64,000 nt of DNA from Candidatus Latescibacterota bacterium (GTDB lineage: Bacteria > Latescibacterota > UBA2968 > GCA-2709665), in contig CAXXXF010000006.1 in the NCBI GenBank assembly GCA_963667175.2, forward strand, positions 32,001 through 96,000, in the 5' to 3' direction. The position numbers and the translations under genes are program-made. Shown piece after piece: positions 2,451 through 63,670 of this stretch (position 1 is the first letter of the stretch; each line of letters starts with the position of its first letter). The notes under the pieces are model-generated. The model ran no database searches. It was not told the DNA's origin and saw only the letters and a program-made list of their open reading frames with translations.

Positions 2451-2580
2451 CGAGCGTCCTCAAAGACTGCGAAACCGCGAAGAAAGTTAGGCGAGGGGGC
2501 TGTTGCCTCGAATCCGCGGACACGGTGCTACCTGTGTACGCTACTTCGGTTGGGGGACGGTATGCATCGGGTTGGCTGAT
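2451..2580 (-). repeat. Long attC-like intergenic repeat, copy 1 (related to 5706..5838)
   Basis: Colinear similarity over ~125 bp (gcgaaga.agtt.ggcga ... cctgtgt.cg.t.cttcggt.gggg ... gcatcgggt.ggctgat). Confidence 0.6.
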
Positions 2581-2712
2581 TCTCGCCTTTCAGGCTATGC
2601 CTTCGATTGCAGCCTCGCCCAGGCGAATCGCCGCATCGGGAAGCGCGAGTATTCGGTCTTCCAGTCCCCAGGTTCTCCGGTTCGACGACGTCGGCCCCCA
2701 CTTCCGGTGGAG

Positions 2713-3567
2713 CTAGCAGAGGCGTTTGGCATAATAGTCGGCGAAGATGAGCGGGAGTGCGGCCCGTTCATCATCTGTGGGAGGCCGGATCGAGAAGTAC
2801 CCCTTAACGAACTGCTGCATTTCCTCATCGGTAAGCTGTCGACCCACGGTCCCCATCAGCCATTGCATCCGGACCATCACGACGTCCTCGAGCGCCGGAG
2901 CGACGTGAGCTGAATTGAAGTCGGTGAAACGGACTTCGCCTGATGGCGAAGAAATCGTGTTCCAGCTTCGCACGTCTCCACGACAGAAGAGCCACCGGAC
3001 GTCCATCTTTTTAGGTGTGTCATTCAACTGTGCTCGAAGCCGAGCGACAGCGTCCGCCATGTCCGAGGAAAACGTCGTCCTCTCGCAATATTCCAGAGCC
3101 TCGGAGATGTACGGCCGCACATCTCCGACTTCTGATCTGCAGGCTGGAAAGTCTTCGCTCGCATCGTGAACCCGTGCGAGCGCCACCCCCACGTCGCGGA
3201 GCGTGTCGACGCGGTCTGCGACCTCTCCCTCCAGGAAGCCCTCGACCGAAATCACCAGGTCTCGAACGGACTTGCATAAGCTTCCGTCCGTGGTTGGCCG
3301 GATGTCAGGACAGGGCGCGCCGCGATCGGAAAGGTGTCGCACGAACGCCGCGATGGTTTCGGGATGGGTCGCACAGTCCCACCCCGGATTCACGCGGAAC
3401 ACAACGCGTCCGTCCCGCAAGCTGTCGCAAAAGAAGACGCACCGCGAATTCGCCCTGCGGACGCGGGTTACTTCCAAGTCCCAGAATCGCTTGCAGAGAT
3501 CCACGATCTCCCTCTGATCAGGCAGCGGGCCCGTTTTATCTCTAGTTCTGGGATAACGTGTTTCCAC
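2713..3567 (-). CDS. Aminoglycoside phosphotransferase/homoserine kinase-like protein, possibly with premature stop
   Basis: RGDVRSWN catalytic-loop-like and FTDFN metal-binding-like motifs. The frame stays open 40 codons past the TAG, to 2590. Confidence 0.75.
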   Translation of the reverse strand: METRYPRTRDKTGPLPDQREIVDLCKRFWDLEVTRVRRANSRCVFFCDSLRDGRVVFRVNPGWDCATHPETIAAFVRHLSDRGAPCPDIRPTTDGSLCKSVRDLVISVEGFLEGEVADRVDTLRDVGVALARVHDASEDFPACRSEVGDVRPYISEALEYCERTTFSSDMADAVARLRAQLNDTPKKMDVRWLFCRGDVRSWNTISSPSGEVRFTDFNSAHVAPALEDVVMVRMQWLMGTVGRQLTDEEMQQFVKGYFSIRPPTDDERAALPLIFADYYAKRLC

Positions 3568-3607
3568 TTGCTCTCTTAGCTCAGGGCCGGTCGTATCTGC
3601 ACGTAGC

Positions 3608-3696
3608 TGGTGACGTTATGGCTGTTCTGCGAACCTGACGAAGCCAGCTTGGGGCGAGGGGTGGATACCTCGAGCCGCAGACAGCCAGTTCTACGC
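3608..3696 (-). repeat. attC-like site
   Basis: ggtgacgtt ... tggctgttctgcg pairs with cgcagacagcca (one bulged base) ... gttctac; carries the family motif tgcgaacc. Confidence 0.65.
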
Positions 3697-3817
3697 TTGC
3701 GGCATGGCCCCTTTCATACGAAGCATAAGAACGGACTAACTCGAGGCCCACACCGAAAACACTCGATTTTGTACTTCCTGAATCTGGTCTTTCAGTCAGC
3801 CAGAGCTCAATTTACCG

Positions 3818-4333
3818 TCATGAATCGATGGCATGAAGATTGTACCGGTCAAATAGCATCCTGGTCTTCGGATTCCTCATCGCCCCGAGTACAGAGATTC
3901 CGACAACCTCTCCTCCCAGGCGTTCGATCAATCTGACGAGAGCCTTCGCCTGAGCCCCGGTTTCTATCACATCATCGACGACCAGAATTCGATCACCCTC
4001 AGAAACAAGACTGCGATTCACCTCCAGTGCCTTCTTCGTTCCTGTATAGTCAACAAAGGAAATCTGAGCCACATATCGACGAAGCGTAGGAAGGGCGCCT
4101 CCCGTCCTTATCGGTATAAATCCCTTTCCCAGTTTGAGTGCCACCGCGCTGCCTAGGACGAAGCCCAATGCTTCTGGACTCGCAACCTTTTCGAACTGCA
4201 CCCCCACAAATGGTCTGGCCAAATCGGTCACCAGATGCTTTAACACGGCGGGACTATTGCAAAGGGGCGTTAGATCGACCTTGTTTCCCCGAACCCTACG
4301 ACCTATATGGCCCTTGTAGTAGCTCCAATCCAT
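3818..4333 (-). CDS. Adenine phosphoribosyltransferase-like type I PRTase
   Basis: PEALGFVLG and PRPP-binding ILVVDDVIETGA motifs. Confidence 0.85.
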   Translation of the reverse strand: MDWSYYKGHIGRRVRGNKVDLTPLCNSPAVLKHLVTDLARPFVGVQFEKVASPEALGFVLGSAVALKLGKGFIPIRTGGALPTLRRYVAQISFVDYTGTKKALEVNRSLVSEGDRILVVDDVIETGAQAKALVRLIERLGGEVVGISVLGAMRNPKTRMLFDRYNLHAIDS

Positions 4334-4404
4334 TGTTCACGCCGTTCCTGAGCAGGAAGCTTGTCGATAATTCAGATTGTCGGCGGGACACTTTACTGAC
4401 CACA

Positions 4405-4826
4405 CTATCTGGTTGGTCTACCTGCATGCCTGGACACAAGACGCGCGATTGACGCTTCCAGTGTACCCTTTGACTTACAATGTCTAATTGCACTAAGAAC
4501 CCTGAGACGCGTAAATTCTGTATTCTCTTCAATCACTATTTAAAATAAATCCAAGCAGCTTCGCTTCTGTGAAACTGAGCCCAATCACAGTTCGCGTAGC
4601 GTGGCATATCATGCATATAGAAATCTCTTTCTGCATAGATAACACCACTATCCCTCTTCGTGTATCGAATATCTACCTGCTGAGATTCAAGATAGGTTGT
4701 TACCGCATCCCAGACCAGCGCCTTTGGAGTCTTTTTGAAATCCTGCCGCAATTCGAAATCATAAAGCTGGGAATACGCAGAGCAACTTACCAACAATAAA
4801 CAGAAAATTACACCGAAAGATCGCAC
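4405..4826 (-). pseudogene. Frameshifted putative lipoprotein/exported protein
   Basis: Signal-like N-terminus (LLLVSC). ORF stops at 4536, but adding one A in the ttttaaa run continues IVIEENTEFTRLRVLSAIRHCKSKGTLEASI to a stop at 4405. Confidence 0.55.
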
Positions 4827-5680
4827 AATAGGTCACCCATGTTAGAGTTCTCCGTACCTACGCACCCGAGCAGCGGGCCCGTTTCATCTCTGGATCTGGG
4901 ATAGCTGCCAAGCCAGTCTCCCGTCACGAATTCAAACGACCAGTTGTCTGTGTTCAGCACACCCATGCACCCCTCGTGGACTGCCGGCTTTTGTGATCGC
5001 CGCGCATCGCTGACGACACTTGCGACCTGCACGCACATTGTGTCATACACCCGGCGTGGTGCGACGGGGTGGTGGAAATGGCCATACACATGAAATGCAG
5101 GTTTTCGTTTCTTCAGGAAGCTCAGCATCGCATCGGGACCCGGCGCCAGGCCTTCGGATTCGGCGCCGACTCCGAATCCTCCTTCGTGGGAGACCAGGAC
5201 TTCGACGACATCCCCTGAACGAGAATCGAGCCCGCCGGGATCCCCTGCTTCACAGAATCCAACCCGTACGTCCCGATCGTGATGGACGAATCCGTCGGGA
5301 ACGGACTCGAAGATACCGTGCGGATCGATGGGTTGGGGATGTCCAGGTCCTTCTTCATCTAAAGTTCGAAGCGCTGCGAATTCGTCGTGGTTCCCCGCCG
5401 TAACCAGAATGGGCCGAGTCAGATACTCACGGATCCTGGCAGGGAGAGTGGCTTCAACACTATCCAGCAGGATCAGCTTAGCCAGGTCATAGACGGCAGG
5501 ATCCCACTTCTCGAACCTGTCGTATGGCACGTCTCCAGTCCTGGGTTCCGGCAAAACCCCCAGGTCACCTACCTGCACCACGAGATCAAACGGTCTTCTC
5601 CTTTCGGATTGCCAAACCAGCAGGACTGACAGGGCGTGACAAACCCGCCCGTGTACATCACCGATGAATGCAATCTCCAT
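4808..5680 (-). CDS. Calcineurin-like metallophosphoesterase
   Basis: GDVHG, GDLG, GNHD and GHFH motifs. Confidence 0.85.
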   Translation of the reverse strand: MEIAFIGDVHGRVCHALSVLLVWQSERRRPFDLVVQVGDLGVLPEPRTGDVPYDRFEKWDPAVYDLAKLILLDSVEATLPARIREYLTRPILVTAGNHDEFAALRTLDEEGPGHPQPIDPHGIFESVPDGFVHHDRDVRVGFCEAGDPGGLDSRSGDVVEVLVSHEGGFGVGAESEGLAPGPDAMLSFLKKRKPAFHVYGHFHHPVAPRRVYDTMCVQVASVVSDARRSQKPAVHEGCMGVLNTDNWSFEFVTGDWLGSYPRSRDETGPLLGCVGTENSNMGDLLCDLSV

Positions 5681-5705
5681 GGCGTTCTCGTTCCATTCAG
5701 CTTGC

Positions 5706-5838
5706 GCCTGACGTTTCCGCGGGCTACGAGACTGCGAAGAGAGTTGGGCGAAAGGCCCTTTGCCTTGAATTCGAGTACACCTTATTGCCTGTGTGCGATG
5801 CTTCGGTGGGGGAAAAGGTAAGCATCGGGTCGGCTGAT
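5706..5838 (-). repeat. Long attC-like intergenic repeat, copy 2
   Basis: Begins gcctgacgtt (core-like); similar to 2451..2580. Confidence 0.6.
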
Positions 5839-5875
5839 CGCGCGCCCCGCGCGAAGTGGTACATGTCGTGCGACG

Positions 5876-6319
5876 CTATTGGTCCAGCCGTTTGTAGAAG
5901 AACACCTCTCCCAATTCATCGTCAAAGGGAATTCCCTCCAGATTCCCACAGCGTTCGAAGCCTACATGCCTGTGCCAGGTTTGAGGTTCATGCTCGTTGA
6001 CAGCACATGAACTCAGCAGAACCGTCTCGTCTCGTTCCCTCAAGAGACGCTCCAGAAATCCCAGGAACGCCCTCCCTACACCCTTGCCTTGGTATTCCTT
6101 ATTCACGACGATTGAGCTGATATAAGGGATCCCGCCCTGTTGACCTGGCCACAAATACGAAAGGTGCAACGCGCCTGCCAATCCGCCACCAGACTCAGCC
6201 ACGAACAATTCACTCAGACCGGGAATCTGATGAGCGGGGTAATTGGAGTCCAGCTTTAGTGTATACCTGCACCAGTCCAAATCGGAATCGGTGGCCGGTC
6301 GTATGGGGATCTCATTCAA
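5876..6319 (-). CDS. GNAT family N-acetyltransferase
   Basis: VNKEYQGKGVG acetyl-CoA motif. Probable TTG start at 6319 with GGAG upstream; the longer ORF overlaps the next gene. Confidence 0.8.
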   Translation of the reverse strand: MNEIPIRPATDSDLDWCRYTLKLDSNYPAHQIPGLSELFVAESGGGLAGALHLSYLWPGQQGGIPYISSIVVNKEYQGKGVGRAFLGFLERLLRERDETVLLSSCAVNEHEPQTWHRHVGFERCGNLEGIPFDDELGEVFFYKRLDQ

Positions 6320-6458
6320 TGTTGGAGTGCTCCCGATATTGCATACCTTACGCCCTACCTTTTGTTCTGTGTGGGAAACCGGTTGCCCGAAATCAGCTGC
6401 CAAGTCGCACGTAAGTCCGGAACCACGAGCGCCCCCTCGTCGTCTCCCGGGCCAACCC

Positions 6459-7067
6459 TCACAGGATCTCCTTGCCGAAGTCGGCGTAGGTCCCTGCGGC
6501 GGAAAGCCTGATCGGGGCGTTGATTCCATCCAGCTCGGTGGCCACGGAATCCAGTGCTGCGAAATCGGGGACGGTCCACACGGCCAGCCCGCCGGGTTCG
6601 GGCGCCAGCATCCCGATTCTCTGGACGAGGAGATTGAGGGTGAACTCAGGATGCTGTTTTGCACGGCTCTCGTAGAAGCCCCTGACCGTATCCGCGGTGT
6701 CGCGGGAAGCGAAAAACTCGGCGTAGTAGGCGCCGTTGCGGGCCGGGACCGGTTCGAGCAGCGGAGTGTAGCACCCGGCCGCGTCGATCCGCGCGACCTG
6801 AAAGAACGGCTGTTCCAGGTCGTCCGCCTCGCCGCTTCGAAAGATCCGGTCCCACGCGTCGATCCTGTCAAGGCCGGCGTTCCGCGTGTGCCAGACCGTC
6901 ATATAGCCCGGATCGGGCCCCAATCGCCACGTGCGGCCGACGGACAGAACCAACTCGTCCTCATACCCGCTGTCCCACCCCTCCTGGCCCTGTGCGGCCT
7001 GCGAGCGAAACGTCTCCGGATCGACGCCCGGCAGACGGCTGATGTACTCGATGTAAACAAGGCCCAT
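6459..7067 (-). CDS. Hypothetical protein, two similar alpha/beta halves
   Basis: 202 aa ORF 21 bp downstream of the oxidoreductase; internal repeat YIEYISR / YAEFFAS. Confidence 0.6.
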   Translation of the reverse strand: MGLVYIEYISRLPGVDPETFRSQAAQGQEGWDSGYEDELVLSVGRTWRLGPDPGYMTVWHTRNAGLDRIDAWDRIFRSGEADDLEQPFFQVARIDAAGCYTPLLEPVPARNGAYYAEFFASRDTADTVRGFYESRAKQHPEFTLNLLVQRIGMLAPEPGGLAVWTVPDFAALDSVATELDGINAPIRLSAAGTYADFGKEIL

Positions 7068-7088
7068 CGCGTGTGTTGTCCTGTTGCC

Positions 7089-8141
7089 TCACGGCCTGGC
7101 CACAGGGACCTCTTTCCCGGTCGCCGCCGAGGCATAGAGCGCGTCCATGAGCCGCTGAATTCGCACGATCTCCGTACCCGATACGGGAGAAGCCTCACCC
7201 TGGCGGACGGCACGCAGGAATTCGACGATCAGCGGCCTCATATCGTAGTCGGCGGGCTTCAAGGCGGGGGTCTCCTCACGCCACGATCGTCCGTCGTCGG
7301 TCCAGATTTGAAGTGGCGAAATAGACGCTGCACCGCGGTCGCCGAGAAGGGTCCAGCCTTCGTGTCTGTCAGACGGCGCCTGAAGAAAATTCGCTTCCAC
7401 AGTCAGGATGGTATTGCCGGACAGCCGAATAAAGGCCGCGCCGTAGTCCTCGAAATCCGGATCGAGCGACGCCGGATCGACGTCGTCTCGTATGGTTCCG
7501 GCCGCAATCGGGTAACTGGAGACCCGCTGATGGCAGAATGCGCTGGCGGTCAGCGGTTCAAGGTTGCCAAGCAGCCAGAGCACGAGGTCGAGGTTGTGGA
7601 TCGTCCAGTGCGCGAGAGCGCCGCCGCCGCACGATCCACGCGACCGGTGCGCCATCGCCGGCAGTCCTCGGGCACACCCACCCCACGTTCGAACCGCGTG
7701 TACGTGACCGAGTACGCCGTCCGCGATCCGGTCTCTCAGGTACCGGGACTCGGCCCAGGTCCGGTATTGGAAGCAGATGCTCAGCAGTCGATCGTTTGTT
7801 TCGGCGGCATGGATCATGTCCCGTGCCTCGTCCGAATTCATCGCAACGGGCTTTTCGCACAGGACGTGACATCCCGCCTCAAGGCACATCACCGCGAGGG
7901 CTCGATGACTCGAGGGTAGCGTCGCAATGCTCACGACGTCGGGCCGGGTCCTTTCGAGCATCTCTTCCGCATCCAGAAATCCGGCGACGTCAAACTGCTT
8001 TCCGGCCCACGCCACCCGTTCTGGTTCCAGATCGCACACGCCTACAAGCGAACAGACTCCGGCATCTTCCGCCTCCTTGTAGGCCGGCAGATGTTGCGTG
8101 GTTGCGATCTGGCCGCACCCGATCACGGCGACTTTAGTCAT
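7089..8141 (-). CDS. Gfo/Idh/MocA family oxidoreductase
   Basis: KVAVIGCGQIA Rossmann motif and HVLCEKP. Confidence 0.92.
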   Translation of the reverse strand: MTKVAVIGCGQIATTQHLPAYKEAEDAGVCSLVGVCDLEPERVAWAGKQFDVAGFLDAEEMLERTRPDVVSIATLPSSHRALAVMCLEAGCHVLCEKPVAMNSDEARDMIHAAETNDRLLSICFQYRTWAESRYLRDRIADGVLGHVHAVRTWGGCARGLPAMAHRSRGSCGGGALAHWTIHNLDLVLWLLGNLEPLTASAFCHQRVSSYPIAAGTIRDDVDPASLDPDFEDYGAAFIRLSGNTILTVEANFLQAPSDRHEGWTLLGDRGAASISPLQIWTDDGRSWREETPALKPADYDMRPLIVEFLRAVRQGEASPVSGTEIVRIQRLMDALYASAATGKEVPVARP

Positions 8142-8383
8142 GAGCCCCTCGCAGCAGGAGGATAAACTTCACGCCGGATCGCAACACCGATGCGTTGTGC
8201 GCCATCACTCGGGCGTTCGACCCGCCCATCGTCAACGACTCGACGATTCATTGAGCCGCGCCAGTCACGTCGAAGCTCTCAATGGGACGAACGTTTAGCG
8301 CACATCATTGATGATTGTCTTGGGTTATTGATCATTTACTTCCTGTATACGACACCTACCGGGCGTGTTGATGAAAATTATCA

Positions 8384-8560
8384 TCAGACGGCAAAGGGCG
8401 CCTTGGTTGGTTTGCGACGTGGAAATGACACGGGCTTGCGGGACAATCGGGCTTGCCGCTTTTGAATATCTTCAAAAATAGCATCAATATCGTAATCAAA
8501 CTTAGCCGCGTATTGCTCACGGAGCTTCCGTGTTTCTTCCACTATCGGATCTTTCCACAT
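8384..8560 (-). CDS. Small protein, probable antitoxin partner of the PIN toxin (not in ORF track)
   Basis: Own translation MWKDPIVEETRKLREQYAAKFDYDIDAIFEDIQKRQ... (58 aa), starting 3 bp after the PIN stop. Confidence 0.7.
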   Translation of the reverse strand: MWKDPIVEETRKLREQYAAKFDYDIDAIFEDIQKRQARLSRKPVSFPRRKPTKAPFAV

Positions 8561-8563
8561 AAC

Positions 8564-9037
8564 TCAACCCTCCATCAGTTCCTGAGGTGTGCAGATGATA
8601 GGCGGTGCAAAACCTTGTTGAAAACAGATCTCTTCTATCCGCGGTCTCAAGGCCGCATTTGCAATGTGCATGCAATTCCACGTGAGCAGATATTCCATGC
8701 CGTGCACCGCTGCAACTGCGATATGGTAGGCATCCATTTCAGCTGTGTCCGGAATCGGTCCTTCAAGAACCAGTTTTCTGGCAAGTTCCCTGACTGCTTC
8801 GGTCACCGCAAGCTTTGGTAAAGCTTCAATGGCATCCAGACGTCTCTGCGCAAACTCAGGATCTCCAAGGCTCGCTTCTGCGGAAATCAGTTCGGAAACA
8901 AAGAGATCGAAATCGGGCCGACGTGTGTCCCACCACTCAATGGTTGTACTCTGATTTGCCGCAACCCTGAGGTCGTTGCTTAAACGTGCGGCCAGATAAC
9001 TGAGCATCGATGTTTCTATGTAGACCTTTGGCTTCAC
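8564..9037 (-). CDS. PIN domain (VapC-like) toxin
   Basis: VYIETSMLSYL...DAYHIAVA...YLLTWNCMHIAN. Confidence 0.88.
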   Translation of the reverse strand: MKPKVYIETSMLSYLAARLSNDLRVAANQSTTIEWWDTRRPDFDLFVSELISAEASLGDPEFAQRRLDAIEALPKLAVTEAVRELARKLVLEGPIPDTAEMDAYHIAVAAVHGMEYLLTWNCMHIANAALRPRIEEICFQQGFAPPIICTPQELMEG

Positions 9038-9194
9038 TGGTTACTCCAGTTTGCATATTTGATTACCTACTGATTGTGTAAGAAGGACTCAATCAATCTC
9101 AGTCCTGAAAAATACCTGAAAAAATCCAGGATGAGGCCATAATTCTTGTGTGCGATCATTTTGGGTGGCGCGTTGAGGTTTTCGCGCTGCTTGC

Positions 9195-9277
9195 ATTTAA
9201 CGGCGCGCCGGTTTGCGAACCGAGAAGGGAGTTGCCGAAGGCCAGGGCTCAGTTGCCCAAGACGTGCTACATTAAGC
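9195..9277 (-). repeat. attC-like site (degenerate right arm)
   Basis: atttaacg ... ccggtttgcgaacc ... gttgccgaaggccagg ... attaagc. Confidence 0.7.
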
Positions 9278-9305
9278 AGATATCGGCGGCTATGCGAAGC
9301 CCCGG

Positions 9306-9884
9306 TCAAATCTCCCAACCTGACTGATATGTACGGCCTTTGAGGCGTTGGGCAAGTTCGACAAATACTGTCAACGACTTCCTCACTCGTGAAGTTGACG
9401 CCTGGTCCAGTTTATTGTCCGACGTCCAGTTTGCTTCGTGCACGTATACATTGTAAGGACTCACGATGCATTTGAAGTCGAGAATCATCGAGACGGCCAG
9501 CGACGTAAACGCCATATAGCTGTGCGGCACACCACCCGAATTGACAAACATCACTACCTTGTCATAGAAGGCGCCTCTGAGCGATCCGCCTGGTGGCGTA
9601 GAGCCAATATACTCGACGAATTTCTTGAGCTCGGAGCAACAGGCCCAGTTGTAGACCGGACTGGCCAATATTACCGCATCAGATGCCGAAACGATCCTGT
9701 GGCACGATTGGTACACCTCAGACGAATAGATCTCGTCGTCGTCGAAATTCGGCGGATCAAGCTGACAAAGATCGATGAAATCAACCTGGATGCCCCTGTC
9801 TTCCAGCGCGGTCCGACACATAATGGCCAGCACCCTGCTTCGACTATCGGCCTTGAGACTGCTGCTGACGACCGAAATCCTCAT
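9306..9884 (-). CDS. NADPH-dependent FMN reductase
   Basis: SSSLKADSRS and ILASPVYNW...LKKFVE motifs. Confidence 0.88.
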   Translation of the reverse strand: MRISVVSSSLKADSRSRVLAIMCRTALEDRGIQVDFIDLCQLDPPNFDDDEIYSSEVYQSCHRIVSASDAVILASPVYNWACCSELKKFVEYIGSTPPGGSLRGAFYDKVVMFVNSGGVPHSYMAFTSLAVSMILDFKCIVSPYNVYVHEANWTSDNKLDQASTSRVRKSLTVFVELAQRLKGRTYQSGWEI

Positions 9885-10016
9885 CTGGAACTTTCCTCAA
9901 AGTCGGCACGCATCTGGCGCCCGGCTTCCCACCGGAATCCGAACACCGAAACCTGACGAGGGGCAGCTGCGGGATATGGCGAAACAGACGCGCCAGCGCG
10001 CAACAAAAGGATTGCA

Positions 10017-10457
10017 CTACTCGATTGCGTTCATTGACGCTGCCAGCAAGTCAATCTTGTCGTCGTAGTTGGCAACGAGTTCCGGAAGTGAACTGACGTC
10101 GGCCCAAAAGAACTCGAATGGATGGATGACGGTTCCGTCCTCCGCATGTTCTCCGTGGCGCCATGTTTCTTCCGTCGGCCCTTCCACAGACAGATGAAAG
10201 AACCAGCGAAACTGCAGTTCATCGCTGCCGCAGTCCCGCATGTCCCGGGTATCCCGGCCCAGGAACCGTTCAAATCTCAGCCCGGTTAATCCGGTCTCTT
10301 CCCTTGCTTCACGCATCACCGCATCCCGAGGACTCTCTCCGGGCTCAATCGTCCCAGCAGGCACCTGAATACCGGCCTCGGGCGCCACGGGTTGCGTAAA
10401 GAGGAGCAGCCGGCTCCCGTTGGTGATATAGGCGTAGGCTCTGTGGCGCGTCTTCAT
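10017..10457 (-). CDS. NUDIX hydrolase
   Basis: GTIEPGESPRDAVMREAREETGL Nudix box. Confidence 0.92.
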   Translation of the reverse strand: MKTRHRAYAYITNGSRLLLFTQPVAPEAGIQVPAGTIEPGESPRDAVMREAREETGLTGLRFERFLGRDTRDMRDCGSDELQFRWFFHLSVEGPTEETWRHGEHAEDGTVIHPFEFFWADVSSLPELVANYDDKIDLLAASMNAIE

Positions 10458-55701: not shown

Positions 55702-56013
55702 GCAACTCTCCTCTTCAGTTCAATCTTTATTATTTTCAACTCCTTGCGGATGATCGGATATTGTCGATTTTCCAAATTGGCGAGTTTCGGCTTGGGAGGA
55801 TACCGTCGGACTCGACGGCGCACCTGAGAACGTCCGGGCTGTTTTCTGCTCCGTCAAACGCAGCGGGGCCTACGTCGCACGACGTAAGCCCCTTTCGTTT
55901 CACCTCTTCGATGAGGTCCAACCAACGCCACCTTCATCGGCCCTATCCCTTCCGGCACGCCATCGCCCGGAAGGACGAGGAGAAGGGCAGTGTCGACCTG
56001 CTCCTGTTCCGGT

Positions 56014-57066
56014 CTATAGCAGATGGTCCAGAATGAGATTGGTTGATTCAACAATGCGTTGATCGCGAGGCCGTAGATCCGGTTCGAACGCCTTGCCCGT
56101 TAGATGTTGCAGACCCTGAATGTAGCGGACAGCGATTTCTCCCGCCTGCTCGTCCGTGAACTGCTGGTCCTTCTCGGTAACCATTCCTCGCGCGAATTCT
56201 TTCGAAAACGAAACCGGTTTGCCACCCCGCGTCAGCGGCTGTCCGTCGTCGTCCATACGCCAGAAGCGGCTCGAGTCCATCGTGTACAATTCGTCTGCCG
56301 CCACGATCCGATCTTCTGTGTTGACCCCGTGTTCCGTTTTCGTGTCCACGAGGATCATTCCGCGCTCGGCGAGATACTGGGAGACCATCCCGAAAGCCAT
56401 GATGGATGCGTTGCGGAGCTCGTTGTATTGGCCGGGCGTGCAGACATTGTTGTCAAAGAGATACTGCGGATCGATCGTACGATCCACCTTGTCCTTGGTG
56501 CTCGGCGTATCCATCAGGTATGGCAGTACGCCATTGGCGGACAACTGATCCACGTCGATCTGATGGCCCGCATAGTCGAGCGTCGACTCACCCGCCTCCC
56601 TGGCTTGCAGCCAGTGCTGATAGAGGGACGTCGAGGTGCTGCTCTCGGCGTTATACATCCGAAGGACGTTCTCCACCATGATCAGCTTCAAATTCTCTGC
56701 CGGAATCACCGTCGAACTGGCCTTAAGACCAGGCACCTTGAACTGAGAACTGCCCAATACGTGTTCCACCAAACGCAGCATGTGGTCATGATTGATCGCC
56801 AGCACCTGATCCTTAAACGGGATGGCCCCGCGATTCACATCGTGCGTCGATATCCGGTTGTTCCGGAACATCAGCCGGATCGGCTGGCCTTCGCTGGTCG
56901 CGAGGCTCTCGCCAAACACCGAGTCCGATACCTTCCCCTCCAGGATGGTGCAACCATCGAGACGCGGAAGATCACCATCGGCGATAATCTGCTTGATCGG
57001 ACGCCCCTCATTGACGCGTGCACCGTTCTCGGCCACTAATACTCTGATCTGGGTATCATTTAGCAT
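56014..57066 (-). CDS. purC: SAICAR synthetase-like protein
   Basis: GKVSD, RISTHDV, IPFKDQVL, TPSTK, ILVDTKTEHG and DELYTMDSSRFW. Confidence 0.82.
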   Translation of the reverse strand: MLNDTQIRVLVAENGARVNEGRPIKQIIADGDLPRLDGCTILEGKVSDSVFGESLATSEGQPIRLMFRNNRISTHDVNRGAIPFKDQVLAINHDHMLRLVEHVLGSSQFKVPGLKASSTVIPAENLKLIMVENVLRMYNAESSTSTSLYQHWLQAREAGESTLDYAGHQIDVDQLSANGVLPYLMDTPSTKDKVDRTIDPQYLFDNNVCTPGQYNELRNASIMAFGMVSQYLAERGMILVDTKTEHGVNTEDRIVAADELYTMDSSRFWRMDDDGQPLTRGGKPVSFSKEFARGMVTEKDQQFTDEQAGEIAVRYIQGLQHLTGKAFEPDLRPRDQRIVESTNLILDHLL

Positions 57067-57368
57067 GGGTACAGTCCTGTTCAGGTGAAGGCCTCTGGGG
57101 GGAGACGCTCAAGGGAACAGCGATCGTCGTAGAGGCTGGCTTTAGGAAGCGGATGGTCGTCAGGTCAAAGCCGGCGGGATGCCATGCGGGGGGAGTATAT
57201 GGGCGCAGCAATTACCAGTCGGCTTGTTACAGTGCTTAAGATACACGGTGTGTTCGCGCAGAGCAAGGAAAACCGGCTCGGACGTGGATTGGGTGAGGTA
57301 AATCCAAGCTTTCGGGTCTTGTGCACAATCAGCGGGGGTTGGGTGGTTGGGTATCCTCCGCCGCTTGC

Positions 57369-57452
57369 GTGTGACGTCTAAGTGCCCCCGAACCGCGTAG
57401 CGGTTGCGCGAAGGGGCACAAGCCCCGAAGCCGGGGGTGCCGTTGTTAGCCG
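57369..57452 (-). repeat. attC-like site
   Basis: gtgtgacgt ... ccccg/cgggg arms, aaccgcgtagcggtt hairpin, gttgttagccg. Confidence 0.8.
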
Positions 57453-57541
57453 ATGCGGCGCGCCCCGGGTCCAGACACAGCCATCAAAGTGGGTCAGTCT
57501 AGCGCACACCATACACGGCCCCGCTTGGTTTTTCCTGACTC

Positions 57542-58345
57542 TCAATTGGGAAAGCTGATAATCTCCACAGCTGATACAGAGATTACTCCGTGGTCATTGG
57601 TGACGTCACAAAATAGCATCTCCTGCTCGTTCAAAGAGGCCCTTTGGATAATTCGCCTGGCGGTGTCACAAACGACGGAACCGCCAAGAACACGGCCTTC
57701 AAGTATTGGGGTGACCTGGGAAACATAGTTGGACTGGATGACCGGCACATTGAACAATCCTGTAATCGCTTTCGCCCCCTCTCCGCACCCGTCTCGGGTC
57801 ATCTCGCCATCCTGGTTCGTTTTGCTCGTCGCGACACTTGGCCACAGAATCACGTCGCTGTCCTCTAGGCCTCGGCCTACCACGTGATCCAGAAAACTCG
57901 ATTCGGCGCAGAAGACAGAACCAAAAAGAATACCGTGGATGTCTACAGGAGACCGCTCCTCTGACTCTACAAAACCCCATAGTTTCTTCCAACCCTCGAC
58001 CAAGAATGTCCTGGAGCCAGCAAGTACCGGTCCTTCCCCCGGCTGCAGTAGCAACAGCGCATTGAGGAATCCTCTCTTCGAGAGAAAGGGCGAGCCAACC
58101 AGCGTGTAAACTCCAATTTCTTGGGTAACCATGCTCAGCTCTTCCAAACTCGTCTCGATTTGGCCGTACCAATCAGGCTCTTTGAAGAATTCGTGTAAGT
58201 GTTGATCATACCCGGTCAGCATCATCTCTGGGAAAACTATCAACTCAGCCTCATGGGATGCCGCCCTTTGCATCCACGCTTCAACAGTCGCGGTATTTTC
58301 TTCAACTGTTGCCGACATTGCGGGTTGTATTGAACAGACTCTCAT
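57542..58345 (-). CDS. Carbon-nitrogen hydrolase (nitrilase superfamily)
   Basis: LIVFPEMMLTGY and VFCAE. Confidence 0.85.
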   Translation of the reverse strand: MRVCSIQPAMSATVEENTATVEAWMQRAASHEAELIVFPEMMLTGYDQHLHEFFKEPDWYGQIETSLEELSMVTQEIGVYTLVGSPFLSKRGFLNALLLLQPGEGPVLAGSRTFLVEGWKKLWGFVESEERSPVDIHGILFGSVFCAESSFLDHVVGRGLEDSDVILWPSVATSKTNQDGEMTRDGCGEGAKAITGLFNVPVIQSNYVSQVTPILEGRVLGGSVVCDTARRIIQRASLNEQEMLFCDVTNDHGVISVSAVEIISFPN

Positions 58346-58440
58346 TTGATTTCTGGATAAGTAGGGCTGAGGTGTGTCATGGTCTTGCTCTTGTGCTCCG
58401 TAACCCGGGTTGGGAGGGGTTCCGTATTCTGCGCCGCATT

Positions 58441-58530
58441 CGGCTAACGTTTGACGGTTTGCGAATCCCGAAGGGGTTGCCAAAGGCCAAGGAGCGTAAG
58501 CGAACTAGCGCAACACCGTGTTGTTAGCCG
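58441..58530 (-). repeat. attC-like site (best preserved)
   Basis: Minus strand GGCTAAC-5 nt-GGTGTTGC ... GCAAACC-7 nt-GTTAGCC: R''/L''/L'/R' layout with an extra base in L''. Confidence 0.9.
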
Positions 58531-58586
58531 TCGGCACGCGCCACCAAAGCCATAACAGCCCTCTTTTCTATCTTCTTTGAGTTTAG

Positions 58587-59084
58587 TCAAAGGTCACCAA
58601 CTTCGCAGGGGTCCGGTACATTACTCTGTTCAGTTCCGATCCGTTTCACCATTTCAAGATACCAGGGAGCGAATCCACATTCCCGATAAAATGCCAGGAT
58701 ATCATCGAACCGCTTCGCGGCCGAGTAGAGCCGCATGTGACTGAATCCACTGACCTCTGCCCTAACTTGGACAGCATTGACCAACTGCCGGCCTAACCCA
58801 CGATGACGAGATCCGGTACGCACATACAGTTCAACGATTTCAAGAATACGGCTGCCTTCAGGGAATACACACTCGTCTCCATACGGCCGTTCGACGCAAT
58901 AGATGAATCCTACAGGCTTACAGCCATCCATCGCCAGAAAGAGCCAATCCAAGTCGCGGTCGTTCCACACCTCCACCGAATCGGGCCCATAGCCCCATAT
59001 TGCGCTCACGGACGCCAAGTCATTCTGCATCAAGAGAATCCCGGTTATATCCCCGTCGTTTCCTTTACGTATTGTAACAGTCAT
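58587..59084 (-). CDS. GNAT family N-acetyltransferase
   Basis: LYVRTGSRHRGLG and AFYRECGF. Confidence 0.88.
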   Translation of the reverse strand: MTVTIRKGNDGDITGILLMQNDLASVSAIWGYGPDSVEVWNDRDLDWLFLAMDGCKPVGFIYCVERPYGDECVFPEGSRILEIVELYVRTGSRHRGLGRQLVNAVQVRAEVSGFSHMRLYSAAKRFDDILAFYRECGFAPWYLEMVKRIGTEQSNVPDPCEVGDL

Positions 59085-59889
59085 CTGCCCCAGCCTCTCC
59101 ATGAAGCCAACTAAGGCCACTCGGCCAACCCTGGTCGGCCTTAGACAGGATGGCGCGATAGTAGTTATTCAATCCAGTAACGGTATAGTCAAACATCCTG
59201 GAATCGCGGACGTAGTAGTTGGCGATACCGCCTGCCGTGAACTGCTCTGGGTGCGTATACCAGGCTTCGGGACTTTGGTGCCGGACGACTAATTCGGCGT
59301 CATTCATGAGTTCCCACGTGGTTGCAGGAGTGCAATCCTCCCGTTGATAGACTACGCCCGAACTCGTGTCGACTGCTCCCCAGGCCCCAGAACGATGGAC
59401 TTCGACGATCACATGTCCACTGTAGGCTGCATTTAGATTGAAGAGATTCACAATGCGACACGGAAAGCCGGCAACTTGATATAGCGCACACCCTACTCGA
59501 GCCACGTCGGTGCACCAATCAGAACCCCTTTTGATGATCTGCTCTTCTGTTCCTCCAAATCTCATCGAGGACAGTCCGCCACTTGGCTTCTTTTCGCGCA
59601 AACCGAGCGTGGTTTGAGCGATAGCAGCAACCTGCTGCATACGATCGACGACTAGCGATTTCGTCTTAGAAAGAAAGGTCTCAAGACCTGGACGAGATCC
59701 TGCGACGTAGCCGATATCCAGGTCGGTAAAACCGTCGTAAAGGTAAGGAGCTGTGTCATCGCAGAGCCTCAACATATTGGATACGACCTCGCGGTCCACG
59801 CTTCCTTGAGCATGAGTGTCGTTCTCGAGCATGCACTGGTATGCACTGCCGAAAGCTTTAGGGCCTGTAAATCGTGTAAGGTTCGTCAT
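59065..59889 (-). CDS. Transglutaminase-like domain protein
   Basis: WCTDVARV...GHVIVEV...WGAVD triad. Confidence 0.82.
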   Translation of the reverse strand: MTNLTRFTGPKAFGSAYQCMLENDTHAQGSVDREVVSNMLRLCDDTAPYLYDGFTDLDIGYVAGSRPGLETFLSKTKSLVVDRMQQVAAIAQTTLGLREKKPSGGLSSMRFGGTEEQIIKRGSDWCTDVARVGCALYQVAGFPCRIVNLFNLNAAYSGHVIVEVHRSGAWGAVDTSSGVVYQREDCTPATTWELMNDAELVVRHQSPEAWYTHPEQFTAGGIANYYVRDSRMFDYTVTGLNNYYRAILSKADQGWPSGLSWLHGEAGADDCYNT

Positions 59890-59979
59890 TGTCTTGTTGA
59901 ACAATTGCCTCTACGGAAGAATCCCGGGGCAGTCAGGGTTGAACCACCGGTTGTGCTATTAGGTTTGGCGCGAGCTTTC

Positions 59980-60064
59980 GACTAACGTTCTTGCCGTGTG
60001 CGAACTGCCGAAGACAGTGGGACGAAGGGGCGGATGCACCAGGCCGCACGCGGTCGAGTTACAC
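59980..60064 (-). repeat. attC-like site
   Basis: gactaacgtt ... ccgtgtgcg/cgcacgcgg arms ... gttacac containing the NUDIX stop codon. Confidence 0.85.
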
Positions 60065-60565
60065 GTTGCCGTGGCCGGGTGGACGTAACCTGTCGTTCAT
60101 AGCCGGAAGCTCTTCAATCTTGCCGGTATTCAGACGTTCATTGAGTTCCCAGAGTGCGATTCGGTTGCTTTCCCATGTGAGCAGCCTTGTAGCTTCCTTA
60201 AAGGATAACCAGCTCACCTTGTCATGTTCATGTGACAAATCAAGTTCTTGACCGCTTACATCAACCGCAAATGAGTATTCAGGCACGACAAAGATGTCCT
60301 TGGACCAGTGTTCTGTTGGTGAGAATACCGTCTTGGGGACGGATGCGCGAGAATCCAGCCGAAAGAAACGTGCCCCCTTTGGAATGCCTGCCTCCTCTTC
60401 TGCCTCACGCCGTGCGGTTTGCTCTGCCGTCTCATCGTCTTCGGCGCCACCCGCAATGAACTGCCACATAGAGTCATCCGCCCTATGGAAGACGGCAAAC
60501 TGGTATCCGACACTCTCACTCTCCCTGAACGGTATCACGATCACTTGTAGTGGTTGCCTTGCCAT
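60059..60565 (-). CDS. NUDIX hydrolase
   Basis: GGAEDDETAEQTARREAEEEAGI and LSHEH. Confidence 0.92.
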   Translation of the reverse strand: MARQPLQVIVIPFRESESVGYQFAVFHRADDSMWQFIAGGAEDDETAEQTARREAEEEAGIPKGARFFRLDSRASVPKTVFSPTEHWSKDIFVVPEYSFAVDVSGQELDLSHEHDKVSWLSFKEATRLLTWESNRIALWELNERLNTGKIEELPAMNDRLRPPGHGNV

Positions 60566-60638
60566 GCCAACTATTCTCTCGGGCTGGGTCGCTCAAACTC
60601 GTCCATCACAGCAGAAATATAGCCCCGCCACGGTTTTC

Positions 60639-60723
60639 GTGTAACGTTCCCGCCACTTGCGAACCGCCGAGCGAAACGAGGTGGTTGCCGTCAGGCCAGG
60701 GAGCGCAAGTGGACGTGTTAGCG
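60639..60723 (-). repeat. attC-like site
   Basis: gtgtaacgtt ... ccacttgcg/cgcaagtgg arms ... gttagcg containing the upstream stop codon. Confidence 0.88.
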
Positions 60724-61239
60724 GCCTGTGCGGTCGCTGGCAGGCTTAAATCCCTGGACACCGATCTCGTCGTGTAGAATCCGATCAACGATGCAGCCAA
60801 GTTGCTGCACTTTCGCAAATTCGGCAGAGAGTTTCTCAATCAGGTCATCGTCGCCGAAGCGAACGTCTCGACTGAAGACCTTCATCGTACTGTTCGACAC
60901 CTTGTATCCCTTCCATGTCTCAATCATACCGCGTGCTTCTTTCACAAAAGGCCGGCTGAAAGCAGCGCGCTTCAATCGAGTTCCCGGAAATGTGTCTTGA
61001 TGAAGCACGTGCATGACAACACGTGTCTTCTTCTGTTGCATTTCACGGTCAGTAATCCAGGTCTCGAAATGGATACCCATTCCGTCTTGATTGAACCATA
61101 GGTCCCTGAACAGTTGAAGCCCTGATCCACCACTCTTGGGAAACGTGTCCAGTCGCGTTTCCCACCCATCCGAAAACCAGTCTGCCGTACGCAAATTACC
61201 GTCCAGCTTCTCCATCAAGGACGAATAGTCACTCCCCAT
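60718..61239 (-). CDS. Hypothetical protein
   Basis: 173 aa ORF with GGAGAGG RBS overlapping the upstream gene end; stop lies in the attC core. Confidence 0.7.
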   Translation of the reverse strand: MGSDYSSLMEKLDGNLRTADWFSDGWETRLDTFPKSGGSGLQLFRDLWFNQDGMGIHFETWITDREMQQKKTRVVMHVLHQDTFPGTRLKRAAFSRPFVKEARGMIETWKGYKVSNSTMKVFSRDVRFGDDDLIEKLSAEFAKVQQLGCIVDRILHDEIGVQGFKPASDRTGR

Positions 61240-62347
61240 CGGCCTCTCCTCTGCTTTCTGACGGGTGATCTGTCACTGCAGGCAAGACATGCCTTGTTAG
61301 GATGCGAAAGACCTGGTTGGCGACTGCGGATCCGTAATTTCCGCCCGTGAAGACGATCACCATCTCAACATCGGGAATCACGAACAGGAACTGACCGCCA
61401 TTTCCTTCGGCAACGAAGGTTTTGACAGGACGTCCGGCAACACTGAAGCGGTCCAGCCACCAGCCAAACCCATATCGTTCGTTTCCAAACTGAGGGCTGA
61501 CAGATTCTTCGATCCATTCCGCAGGCAGTACCTCAACTCCGTTCCACACCCCACGGTCCAGGTACAGCTGACCGATCTTGGCCAAATCACGGGGTCTGAG
61601 ACGAAGACCTGCATGCGTTTGCGGCAATCCTGTCTTTGTCCGCCACCAATCACTCCGAACGATGCCCAGAGGTCCAAAGAGATATTCGTTGGCGAAAGCA
61701 TCTGCGTGCAGACCGGAAACCTTCTTGATAACCCCCGCAAGAAGAATCGCACATCCGCTATTGTAGTTAAACCGTCTGCCGGGTTCGTCAGACATGTCAG
61801 CTGACAGTACATATCCGATGAAGTCGTCACTGTTCTCCATCTGAGCCTCCGAGTTTGGAGAACCAGGCTCAGATTTATGCGCTCCCGATTGGTCCCACCT
61901 GAACCCGGAAGTCATCGTCAGCAGATGTCCCAAAGTGATCTGTTTTTTCTCTTCGGTTATGTGCGCGGAGTAATCCGGGAAGAATTGATGCATGGGCACG
62001 TCAACAGAATCGATGAAGCCCTTGTCAATGGCTATTCCAACGAGCGCGGACGTTACACTCTTTGAAACAGAGCGTGTGTCATGTAGCTGGTCCTTGTCGA
62101 ATACGACATGCCCCCTCCACCCATCGGCGCCCGCAAAGTACTCCTCCAGTACCAGAATGCCTCGCCGAGCAATCAGAAAGCTGTGGAGATTCTTGTACTC
62201 CCCATCCCGGATCCTGGCCAGACACTCCGCTATCGTATCCGCATCCAGACCTTGTCCAGCCAGAGTACCAGTCCTCCAACCATCGGATGCATCAGCATGA
62301 CCTGTGCTGCACAGAGTGAGGAACATTGACAAGAACAGACGGTTCAC
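61229..62347 (-). CDS. Serine hydrolase, beta-lactamase/penicillin-binding protein family, with signal peptide
   Basis: SVSK (SxxK), HLLTMTSG, FNYNS, LRPRDLAKIG and GNGGQ. Confidence 0.9.
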   Translation of the reverse strand: MNRLFLSMFLTLCSTGHADASDGWRTGTLAGQGLDADTIAECLARIRDGEYKNLHSFLIARRGILVLEEYFAGADGWRGHVVFDKDQLHDTRSVSKSVTSALVGIAIDKGFIDSVDVPMHQFFPDYSAHITEEKKQITLGHLLTMTSGFRWDQSGAHKSEPGSPNSEAQMENSDDFIGYVLSADMSDEPGRRFNYNSGCAILLAGVIKKVSGLHADAFANEYLFGPLGIVRSDWWRTKTGLPQTHAGLRLRPRDLAKIGQLYLDRGVWNGVEVLPAEWIEESVSPQFGNERYGFGWWLDRFSVAGRPVKTFVAEGNGGQFLFVIPDVEMVIVFTGGNYGSAVANQVFRILTRHVLPAVTDHPSESRGEADGE

Positions 62348-62356
62348 CGATCTGAC

Positions 62357-62500
62357 TCCTAACAGCCCGTTGAAAAAGTCCATCCGGGCTACCTGCCTGG
62401 CCGCCCGCCTGCGCCGAGTGCCGCTCGGCAGGCAGGGCAGACAGGCGTCCGGCCCTTGTGACCGAATACCGGCGTTGCCTGCCTGCAGCAGGCAGGCGCT
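62357..62500. repeat. Lone attC core followed by an IS/MITE-like end and nested CCTGCC..GGCAGG hairpins
   Basis: tcctaac|agcccgttgaaaaagtcc ... cctgcctgg...gcagacagg ... cctgcctgcagcaggcagg. Confidence 0.5.
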
Positions 62501-62521
62501 CCCTCCCGGAACTACATGGAT

Positions 62522-63481
62522 CTACCCCGGAAACTCAGTCCTCAACAGCGGTTGAACACGATACCTCCACTGGCTCTCAATCAAGGAATGGTCTGGTGAT
62601 TTTGCGGCTGCTTCCAGGATATTCGCAGCTGCCCGACTAGCCATGAGGGTAGGTATGTACTTTTCCAAATCCATGCTGAGTGAACGAACTTCACGATACC
62701 CCTTCAATAACGCATCAGTCCTCTCCTGGAAACCGGGACGACCGTAGGTGCCGGACAGGATCACAGCGATGTCATACAAATAGTAGCCGAATCCGCAGTC
62801 GCCGAAATCAATCGCGATGGCGTGACCCGGTCGAAAGAGGACATTTCCGAAACTGAGGTCTGCGTGAATGAGGCCGAACATCTCTGTGTCGCCGCCCATC
62901 TGTTGTTCCGCTTCTGTCAGCCGACCATAGACCGTTTCCAGATCGCGGCGAACAGGAGCCGGTCCGATCTCATCTAAAGGAAACTTCGAACGGAAACCAA
63001 AAAGACCCTCAGCGTCATACGTAGGGCGATCAAAACCCGTGGGTGGCGACCACGCTTCAGAGTGATTGTGCAACTCACCCGCAACGCGGCCAAGCAATTC
63101 GAAGTGCCGAGGCGATCGGTGGTCCTGATCCAGGATACGTCCGTTTAGCCAGGAAGTAACGGATACCGGGAATGGTCCGGGCACGCCTGGAACATCTGCC
63201 ACGATAACTCTTTTGCCGTCAGGCGATCTATAGGGCTGTGGAACGGAGAGCGTGGTATCGTGGCAGAGAGCCTCCAGCCAATCCAATTCCGATTCAATGA
63301 TCCGGGGCGCCTTCTTGTCACGGTGAATCCGCACTCGATAATCGCCTGAATCGCAGGTCCACTTTGACTTGCGACAACGGCATTCTCCCAAACCCAGTTC
63401 GCGGAGCGCGGCCTTTGCCACCTTGTGTAACCTACGGATCCGTCCCTGGTGAGTTAGTTCTTCGAAGCTCCGTATGGCCAT
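62522..63481 (-). CDS. Phosphotransferase (homoserine kinase type II/APH family)
   Basis: HADLSFGN and IDFGDCG. Confidence 0.88.
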   Translation of the reverse strand: MAIRSFEELTHQGRIRRLHKVAKAALRELGLGECRCRKSKWTCDSGDYRVRIHRDKKAPRIIESELDWLEALCHDTTLSVPQPYRSPDGKRVIVADVPGVPGPFPVSVTSWLNGRILDQDHRSPRHFELLGRVAGELHNHSEAWSPPTGFDRPTYDAEGLFGFRSKFPLDEIGPAPVRRDLETVYGRLTEAEQQMGGDTEMFGLIHADLSFGNVLFRPGHAIAIDFGDCGFGYYLYDIAVILSGTYGRPGFQERTDALLKGYREVRSLSMDLEKYIPTLMASRAAANILEAAAKSPDHSLIESQWRYRVQPLLRTEFPG

Positions 63482-63569
63482 TCCGACCTCCACAAAAGCA
63501 CCGTCACCATCGGTGGAGTACCGACTCTCTCGCGTGCCGCGGGACCCGGTGTCCTGTCCCAGCAATGCC

Positions 63570-63670
63570 GCCTAACGTTCTCGCCACTTGCGAAGCCGCC
63601 GCAGGCAGTTGGGCGACCGAACTCAGCTTTTGCCGCGGCCGATCTCCGGTTGCTCGGCAAGGCAACAATC
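63570..63670 (-). repeat. attC-like site (left arm clear, right arm degenerate)
   Basis: gcctaacgttctcgccacttgcgaagcc, nearly the same as the 60639 arm. Confidence 0.7.

Follow-up and report, generated by a model that had tools for sequence, protein, structure and literature searches.

The closest described counterparts of the locus reported here are the integrons. The insertion of their integrase IntI is treated both as defining, Ghaly et al. naming the extra domain as the defining IntI feature (bioRxiv 10.1101/2022.02.06.479319), and as essential for integron recombination, Smyshlyaev et al. terming it essential for integron function (PMC8138268; bioRxiv 10.1101/542381), and detection tools depend on it. 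The latter authors delimit an "integron-like" subgroup that unites IntI with insertion-less homologues from IS91 and IS3 elements, and the building of attC models has been described as well (PMC8352920). The window analysed here, that is, the whole stretch of 64,000 nucleotides from Candidatus Latescibacterota bacterium (assembly GCA_963667175.2, contig CAXXXF010000006.1, hereafter C6, positions 32001-96000), is in our judgement quite probably occupied by a gene-cassette array, orphaned and decaying, that belongs to a non-canonical integron-like system. The genome (G000) comprises 5.5 Mb in 18 contigs and is 95% complete; it was compared with 14 congeners (15 genus genomes with G000, five of the congeners being single-contig), 41 relatives and 168 genomes of the phylum. 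G-numbers denote comparison genomes and L-numbers denote DNA stretches fetched around loci.

It can be seen from Table 1 that attC-like sites extend over nearly the whole window. Altogether 23 sites or 3'-arm remnants, all on the minus strand, lie between positions 2449 and 63655, and two more remnants near 14510-14542 and 46672-46704 keep the 5' arm only. The sequence-only reading of this DNA had described about 20 related imperfect palindromes between co-oriented, unrelated genes over 2451..63670; number, setting and limits are borne out, and the stop codons of the four open reading frames (ORFs) for which it claimed an overlap with the inverse core (30228, 42769, 60059 and 60718) were each checked and are the TAA of that core. 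The minus strand holds 48 of the 53 non-overlapping ORFs of at least 150 aa in the window, against 77 of 126 in C6:200-400 kb. The search with nhmmer gave 17 matches at E<0.01; all of them, including 14 training sites, fell within C6:29.7-101.5 kb on the minus strand. A matrix built from 93 sites of foreign genomes gave 201 3'-arm matches genome-wide, 20 of which lie on the minus strand of the array (C6:1-122 kb), a density about 10 times the per-strand background; when both arms were required, eight of nine matches were inside the array, and the ninth, on C16, is without an inverse core. Neither nhmmer nor this matrix found minus-strand sites below C6:29.7 kb, though the genes stay co-oriented to the contig start. 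The array region measures at least 113 kb (C6:1 to about 113 kb), with its head near C6:118-122 kb, and its G+C is 0.560 in C6:1-121 kb against 0.598 across the remaining contig. Only about eight window sites retain at least 8 of 11 stem pairs and many are decayed; at decayed sites the automatic choice of R'' by folding energy is unreliable.

The build of these sites was derived from 200 motif matches in 19 fetched array stretches, 136 of which have a complementary 5' arm. Of the 136, 72 have a 3' arm that is 4 nt longer, 29 one that is 3 nt longer and 16 one that is 2 nt longer, while the other 19 show different offsets. Across 97 distinct sites of the +3/+4 kind, positions 2-3 behind the AAC pair at offset 4 (81%), position 4 is unpaired and variable, and positions 5-13 pair at offset 3 (73-86%). 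In this layout R'' (nnnTAAC) is followed by a single nucleotide, two paired bases, a bulged base and the nine bases of the main stem; after a loop of variable size come the partner strand of the stem, five unpaired nucleotides and GTT. Several pair types occur per stem column, the stem being evidently conserved as pairing and not as sequence, and such covariation fits a hairpin substrate. Inverse core and core (RYYYAAC ... GTTRRRY-like) with stop codon overlap are present, as in attC. The canonical attC register, with 5-nt and 5-6-nt spacers and a conserved extrahelical base in L'', is replaced by a 1x5 loop, a net +3/+4 and a variable bulge; aadA1 attC, put through the same kind of scan as a control, gave 5/6 and net -1.

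Of the IntI loci scanned in the phylum, 4 of 16 have net -1 sites on the classical side (G157, G092, G097 and G098), and 10 of 16 loci of an insertion-less recombinase family, described below, have +3/+4 sites. G098 carries both enzyme types, each with its own site type. The same site build stands behind homologues on two of three Bacteroidota plasmids (Chryseobacterium and Fulvitalea) and on several metagenome contigs.

A search with the IntI profile TIGR02249, counting matches over its cut-off, found none in G000 or in any of the 14 congeners; 2 of the 41 relatives and 17 of the 168 phylum genomes have one. G000 contains three tyrosine recombinases over the Pfam cut-off, none of them near the array. 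Two of its genes are Xer-like and only 31-35% identical to the insertion-less family, which has no member in the G000 assembly. The sequence-only reading had proposed a sedentary integron array or an integrase-less cluster of attC sites (CALIN), with intI and attI to the right of position 64000, and a flank search for a tyrosine recombinase with the IntI-specific insertion came out negative. Its first part stands in that this is an integron-like cassette array now without a recombinase, and hence CALIN-like, a cluster of attC-type sites with no integrase nearby; the sites are attC-like and lie outside the canonical register. As to the second, the head does lie to the right, with no intI there, and the probable cognate enzyme, as seen in relatives, lacks the IntI insertion.

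That enzyme was traced through the site motif, which forms one-strand clusters in congeners and in other genera, and through a syntenic head. The peptidoglycan-binding and DNA polB genes that mark this head have as their neighbour in G011, G013 and G002 a tyrosine recombinase gene co-oriented with the array, frameshifted in G011, 5'-replaced in G013 and a remnant in G002. The protein matches the IntI model only on either side of the insertion. Its array-heading members have 91-92 aa between the catalytic R and HxxR, where IntI1 and two further IntIs have 133. At the membership threshold of E<=1e-60, the family is present in 29 of the 168 phylum genomes; the genus contributes two members, both damaged, and no intact one was found within it. 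The closest intact member, in G088, has 376 aa and is 82% and 61% identical to the two halves of the G011 protein (tree support 99). Its gene is followed by the same attI-like site and stands at the head of four co-oriented sites of matching geometry.

Behind these genes, a segment of about 185 nt, made up of the last recombinase codons and the DNA that follows, has an imperfect palindrome and GTTA at its far end. The copies cease to resemble one another at the GTTA or no more than 10 nt from it, and a different cassette follows each copy; on this comparison the segment is apparently the equivalent of attI. G000 has four copies of the recombinase stub with the attI-like site, with the crossover G at C6:117716, C6:106363, window 55212 and window 15694, and at least one such copy occurs in 13 of the 15 genus genomes. 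Window positions 55207-55384 share 71% identity (E 1e-17) with the corresponding DNA that follows the intact gene of G088. Two partial attI-like copies (C6:106353-106436 and L028:12924-13002) start at another GTT, which lies about 75 nt upstream of the main crossover and may mark a secondary point of recombination. The link between this enzyme and these sites is one of synteny and association.

Mobility of the cassettes was examined by a circle test, in which the three variable bases of R'' were compared with the start of the same cassette and with the start of the next one in 65 distinct cassettes of at most 1.8 kb. The own start was better in 55, worse in 2 and tied in 8, and a perfect match was seen with the own start in 51 of 65 and with the next start in 5 of 65. 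The observed mean was 2.60, a value that none of 10000 permutations reached, their mean being 0.95. Starts of homology blocks lay within 8 nt of a crossover G in 12 of 137 cases (9 distinct sites), where 0.68 was expected and shifted controls gave 0-4. One cassette stands after the attI-like site in G013 but after one of the attC-like sites in G000; between G000 and G007 a second cassette shows the opposite exchange. At the level of sequence, these comparisons show cassettes leaving and entering as circles, with GTTA as the place of crossover.

The recombinase family is large, with 4443 of 8000 scored candidates belonging to it, and the source names among its best 120 include Spirochaetota, Chloroflexota, Firmicutes and an archaeon. 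The predicted model consists of an N-domain, a core-binding domain and a catalytic domain; VchIntIA (PDB 2a3v) was the top match in both Foldseek and phmmer, and XerA was among the best matches in VIA. The N-domain weakly resembles HARP, a fold shared by SMARCAL1, UvsW and XPB; in SMARCAL1 and UvsW it is described as a domain for fork reversal (PMC4666394). Pfam matched it in 16 of 49 cases, at best with 22 bits against a cut-off of 25, and the top Foldseek match was 4o66 (E 0.053). In VIA, UvsW was matched by the whole model with Z 7.9 and a root-mean-square deviation of 1.8 over 62 aa, and by the N-domain alone with Z 5.1 at rank 3. Fold searches with the N-domain alone gave no match at E<=0.001, and an Atlas search returned unnamed clusters only.

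In the trees the family clusters with IntI and the IS91-coupled enzymes against Xer. In a tree from a trimmed alignment of 48 rows, made after removal of one mis-picked row, IntI came out as the sister of all the insertion-less rows (support 84). In an earlier quick tree, in which five loci had no row, IntI nested beside the short divergent members (support 92). The two trees disagree, and IntI may be either sister to the group or nested in it.

The same site subfamilies are used by HARP-less recombinases facing away from the array (G016, G102 and G106) and by IS91-coupled modules (G020); therefore the HARP-like domain is not required in every layout and is not the whole answer. In G016 (L024:12456-13600) a 322-aa recombinase, insertion-less and HARP-less, has its array behind it and a GTT boundary upstream of its start, which is the classical integron layout; G102 and G106 hold relatives of it. 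Six recombinases of G020 were at first taken for integrases of the platform and turned out to belong to modules with an IS91 transposase (L021:13160-15479, L022, L023, L030, L031 and L032), each having its own hairpin and GTT at the end. Most of these modules head cassette arrays, and the same GNAT cassette stands behind one module (L031) and within an array (L021). The modules look like a mobile form of the platform. Similar hairpins follow recombinase and IS91 modules in L047, L064 and L157.

Several further observations concern these related loci. One and the same IS110-family element sits in opposite orientation directly after an attC-like GTT in G020 (L021:10413-11504, L022:10415-11506 and L023:14707-15798); we take it to recall the IS1111-attC elements. 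The array of the Chryseobacterium plasmid (L037) is interrupted by an IS110 and a group II intron, and a 148-nt, perfectly symmetric, ORF-less unit bounded by AAC and GTT occurs in it three times at cassette junctions (L037:11132-11279, 13227-13374 and 15608-15755). Short homologues at 43% identity, one annotated TnpF, are found on Acinetobacter and other plasmids (H34-H40).

As to the state of the array, between 19 and 43% of the window recurs in congeners, with a median identity of 84-94%, and near-identical duplicated cassettes (97-98%) exist. Site erosion increases from head to tail, many genes persisting in inherited order. As observations that would speak against a cassette array, the sequence-only reading had named repeats scattered genome-wide in both orientations like repetitive extragenic palindromic (REP) elements, absence of IntI from the genome or its relatives, and a gene order conserved across strains. 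The sites occupy one locus and one strand; IntI is absent from the 15 genus genomes and carried by two of the 41 relatives; and gene order is largely the same (rho 0.79-0.95 in seven stretches) with 5-12 order breaks in each. We read the absence of IntI and the conserved order as signs of an orphaned, fossilising array and not of REP-type repeats. Since the sites are eroded and the enzyme is absent, the locus reads as an inherited array frozen by recent recombinase loss.

The platform, as reconstructed from relatives, would consist of a tyrosine recombinase of about 375 aa, of the "integron-like" subgroup, without the IntI insertion and with an N-terminal HARP-like domain. It would be transcribed in the direction of the cassettes, with the attI-like site about 130 nt behind its stop, and each cassette would end in a hairpin-forming site that the enzyme presumably recombines as a folded single strand. 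What the IntI insertion does may here be achieved by the unusual geometry of the loop, possibly with help from the HARP-like domain. In the genus the recombinase gene would have been broken or deleted, in G000 with insertion sequence (IS) elements and a miniature inverted-repeat transposable element (MITE) now occupying the head, and after the loss of the enzyme the sites would have eroded with distance from the head.

Several results weigh against this explanation. The enzyme link for the window is indirect, because there is no family recombinase in this assembly. In the window alone the circle test is weaker, the own start being better in five of eight pairs, worse in two and tied in one. 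Stem pairing of 0.80 against 0.51 in shuffled controls is inflated, as sites were chosen for arm complementarity and kin cassettes are not independent. The comparison of registers is thinned by the 12 of 16 IntI loci that offer no clear array, by one or two +4 hairpins near the G097 IntI, by 6 of 16 insertion-less recombinase loci with no convincing site within the fetched flank, and by one of the three plasmid loci (L036), where no array was found. Finally, the HARP assignment is below the cut-off and HARP-less enzymes use the same sites.

Other explanations have to be measured against the same evidence. One would keep the sites and change the enzyme: the work would be done by the short recombinase found in IS91-like elements, or by a different member of the subgroup acting in trans, and the recombinase at the head would be just one of several users of the sites. 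G020, with its six modules and no other family member at the threshold, lends this some weight, each module having its own terminal hairpin and most having cassettes after it, one first cassette of which passes the circle test; the short divergent members likewise head arrays of the same sites. It is nonetheless unlikely for this array, whose attI-like copies belong to the HARP-type gene, no IS91 module being present in G000 or found in any genome of the genus, and it would alter the identity of the enzyme, not its non-IntI nature. Distinctly unlikely is an ordinary CALIN, in which a canonical IntI, since lost, unassembled or acting in trans, laid the cassettes and the insertion-less recombinase at the head is a bystander. 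Cassette anatomy and GTT crossover are like those of integrons, IntI is present in the phylum, and loss of intI can give rise to CALINs (PMC8618304). Against this, IntI is missing from all 15 genus genomes, the phylum IntIs accompany attCs of canonical register, the insertion-less gene has the attI-like crossover fused to its 3' end, and G016, G020 and G015 contain fresh arrays although they lack IntI.

The duplicated cassettes at 97-98% identity, the 5-12 order breaks per congener and the two Xer-like genes of G000 could suggest that the array is still being rearranged, either through the action of XerC/XerD-like recombinases of the host or because its sites recombine homologously. We regard this as very unlikely given the erosion of sites from head to tail, the largely inherited order and the distance of the host Xer-like proteins from the family; moreover, the G011 and G013 recombinase genes are 95% alike in DNA, and therefore the loss is recent enough to account for young duplicates. 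That the sites are REP-like or terminator repeats in a variable island, without site-specific cassette mobility, is hardly credible. Gene order is indeed largely colinear among congeners and many genes have no recognisable site, but the repeats keep to one locus and one strand, breakpoints fall at the crossover, and the circle test already contradicts this view. A true dispersed repeat is at hand for comparison at window 62380-62500: a short palindrome that is matched 67 times across contigs in both orientations and is deeply covered in metagenome runs; it has no relation to the att sites and behaves quite differently from them.

Beyond the orphaned array itself, we lean, with little more than even confidence, towards a wider proposal. 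Insertion-less recombinases would run a second, widespread cassette system with 1x5-loop hairpins, in three layouts (HARP-type co-oriented, short divergent and IS91-coupled mobile) that draw on one shared cassette pool; tools that look for IntI would miss it, and its relation to canonical integrons may be that of a sister or an ancestor. The window would then be part of a genus-wide fossil, in which more than 100 kb of captured genes are being domesticated after enzyme loss. If insertion-less enzymes do recombine differently shaped hairpins, cassette capture would be wider than surveys indicate, homologues with such arrays being present in Latescibacterota, Bacteroidota plasmids and metagenomes, and some "integrase-less" arrays would have another cognate enzyme. 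The origin of hairpin recombination also becomes open to direct testing: a single phylum, and even a single genome, contains two natural pairs of enzyme and site that differ by an insertion of 41 residues and a register of 4 nt, and swaps are therefore straightforward. The genus, for its part, offers a series of stages in recombinase loss and array decay.

Coordinates of the features are collected in Table 1; in one listing the site limits were off by one at 57375, 42629 and 34110.

Table 1. Cassette array, recombination sites and selected cargo of the window (window coordinates)
Feature	Position	Strand	Remarks
Cassette array	2449..63655	-	part of a region of at least 113 kb
attC-like site, best preserved	60639..60723	-	11/11 stem pairs, 1x5 loop, bulge at +4; ORF 60718 stop in R''
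attC-like site	59980..60064	-	closes NUDIX cassette; R'' equals own cassette start 3/3
attC-like site	58442..58529	-	+2 variant
attC-like site	57369..57451	-	closes carbon-nitrogen hydrolase cassette; own-start match 3/3
Recombinase 3' stub and attI-like site	55206..55388	-	crossover G at 55212
3'-arm remnant	53882..53910	-	TIM-barrel cassette begins here, common to G016 from the same point
attC-like site	53008..53102	-	own-start match 3/3
attC-like site	52214..52307	-	own start 2/3, next start 0/3
attC-like site	48993..49071	-	10/11 pairs, core drifted to GTG
attC-like site, decayed	45767..45846	-	
Site, strongly decayed	45084..45170	-	
attC-like site, long (about 150 nt)	42625..42774	-	limits approximate; ORF 42769 stop in R''
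attC-like site, decayed	34848..34934	-	
attC-like site, decayed	34103..34175	-	limits approximate
attC-like site	33153..33243	-	compensated GAC/GTC core
attC-like site	31286..31359	-	stem subfamily also beside short divergent recombinases (G016, G102, G106)
attC-like site	30148..30233	-	ORF 30228 stop in R''
attC-like site	20180..20269	-	core damaged
Second, more diverged recombinase 3' stub and attI-like site	15688..15879	-	crossover G at 15694
attC-like site	14175..14260	-	stem retained 9/11, core lost
Site, decayed	9195..9283	-	3' arm kept
Site, decayed	5706..5790	-	3' arm kept
attC-like site, decayed	3608..3694	-	
Site, strongly decayed	2449..2535	-	orthologous cassette in G015 sits after an intact core
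HicA/HicB toxin-antitoxin pair	11536..12131	-	Pfam
Inverted two-gene module in own cassette	52363..52971	+	HTH_3 gene (52657-52971) and small upstream ORF

The cargo is typical of cassettes, Pfam recognising APH, GNAT, NUDIX, methyltransferases, HicA/HicB and DUF2442 among the 67 ORFs scanned. The inverted module at 52363..52971 is presumably HigBA-like, a toxin label that the scan did not confirm. An MT-A70 methyltransferase with three unannotated neighbours (window 22309-25027, minus strand), with a HEPN-like PADLOC match (PDC-S64), may form a block devoted to defence or modification. To the right of the window lie an Abi_C/AbiJ-like gene (L006:10536-11333) and, on the array strand, a cyclase of the cyclic-oligonucleotide-based antiphage signalling type with a Cap15/2TM effector (L006:15275-16941, corresponding to C6:111275-112941), for which the attC-like entry site is at C6:113049.

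Mobile elements of other kinds are also present. The head region (C6:107-122 kb) holds IS3, IS21, IS1595 and DDE transposase genes and a MITE. This 286-bp non-coding MITE-like element lies at window 44640-44925 and at C6:117964-118249 (24 genome-wide matches), the latter copy being 65 bp upstream of the head attI-like stub, at the position expected of the recombinase gene. A complete group II intron with reverse transcriptase/maturase occupies window 25241-27217 on the plus strand and has at least six near-identical copies elsewhere in the genome, along with ORF-less derivatives; group II introns were the only matches of an Rfam scan. It was considered as an attC-targeted (IIC-attC) insertion, for which insertion inside an attC site is the criterion (PMC8876359), and rejected, its flanks being without a site and its copies lying elsewhere in the genome.

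Duplicated cassettes or stumps at 78-92% identity pair 21283-22262 with 27672-28650, 14299-14582 with 45966-46744, 1478-1630 with 10362-10515 and 30034-30155 with 34982-35103. The 14299 copy is a glycosyltransferase cassette with an internal deletion, and the identical deletion joint occurs in two metagenome runs. Runs sharing parts of the window include sponge and marine ones, none carrying half of its words, and the four read in detail are contigs of relatives. A joint omitting 49919-52218 and ending at the core of the 52214 site was seen in two runs, with the intervening letters unread; it is not counted as evidence.

Overall, the array agrees with sedentary chromosomal integrons and CALINs in its co-oriented, promoterless-type cassettes, the stop codon in the inverse core, the GTT crossover, a hairpin with one 5'-arm bulge, toxin-antitoxin and defence cargo, and decay after integrase loss. 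A recombinase-adjacent attI-type site with crossover at G/TT is likewise shared with integrons. Here, however, that site is behind the recombinase 3' end, the recombinase is without the IntI insertion, 41 aa shorter between the catalytic motifs and equipped with a HARP-like N-terminus, and the site has a 1x5 loop, a net +3/+4 and a variable bulged base, as against the 5x6 and net -1 of integron attC. Integrons of the Treponema type have intI co-oriented with the array and take up cassettes 3' of that gene, and their IntI carries the IntI-specific domain. XerA of archaea resolves chromosome dimers at dif. It supplies the only NCBIfam model passed by the G017 member (NF040815, 225.6 against 220 bits) and top VIA matches (PDB 5hxy and 4a8e), whereas the present enzymes head cassette arrays and coexist with separate Xer-like genes. 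Archaeal integrons, like the present system, have the insertion site 3' of the recombinase gene, but their IntIs carry the IntI-specific domain (bioRxiv 10.1101/2022.02.06.479319). Delta-attI cassettes of class 1 and 2 integrons resemble the copies at 15694 and 55212 in being internal partial attI copies that serve as cassette ends; those stem from IntI1 systems, and the copies here include the recombinase 3' stub (PMC12901181). The family clusters, like the subgroup of Smyshlyaev et al., with IntI and IS91-coupled enzymes, and the accessible part of that work ascribes no cassette arrays or att sites to insertion-less members (PMC8138268). A literature search, from which subscription papers, bioRxiv supplements and the Smyshlyaev appendix were left out, found no description of cassette arrays run by insertion-less enzymes. 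The system works like an integron and departs from integrons in two features of membership, the IntI insertion and the canonical attC register.

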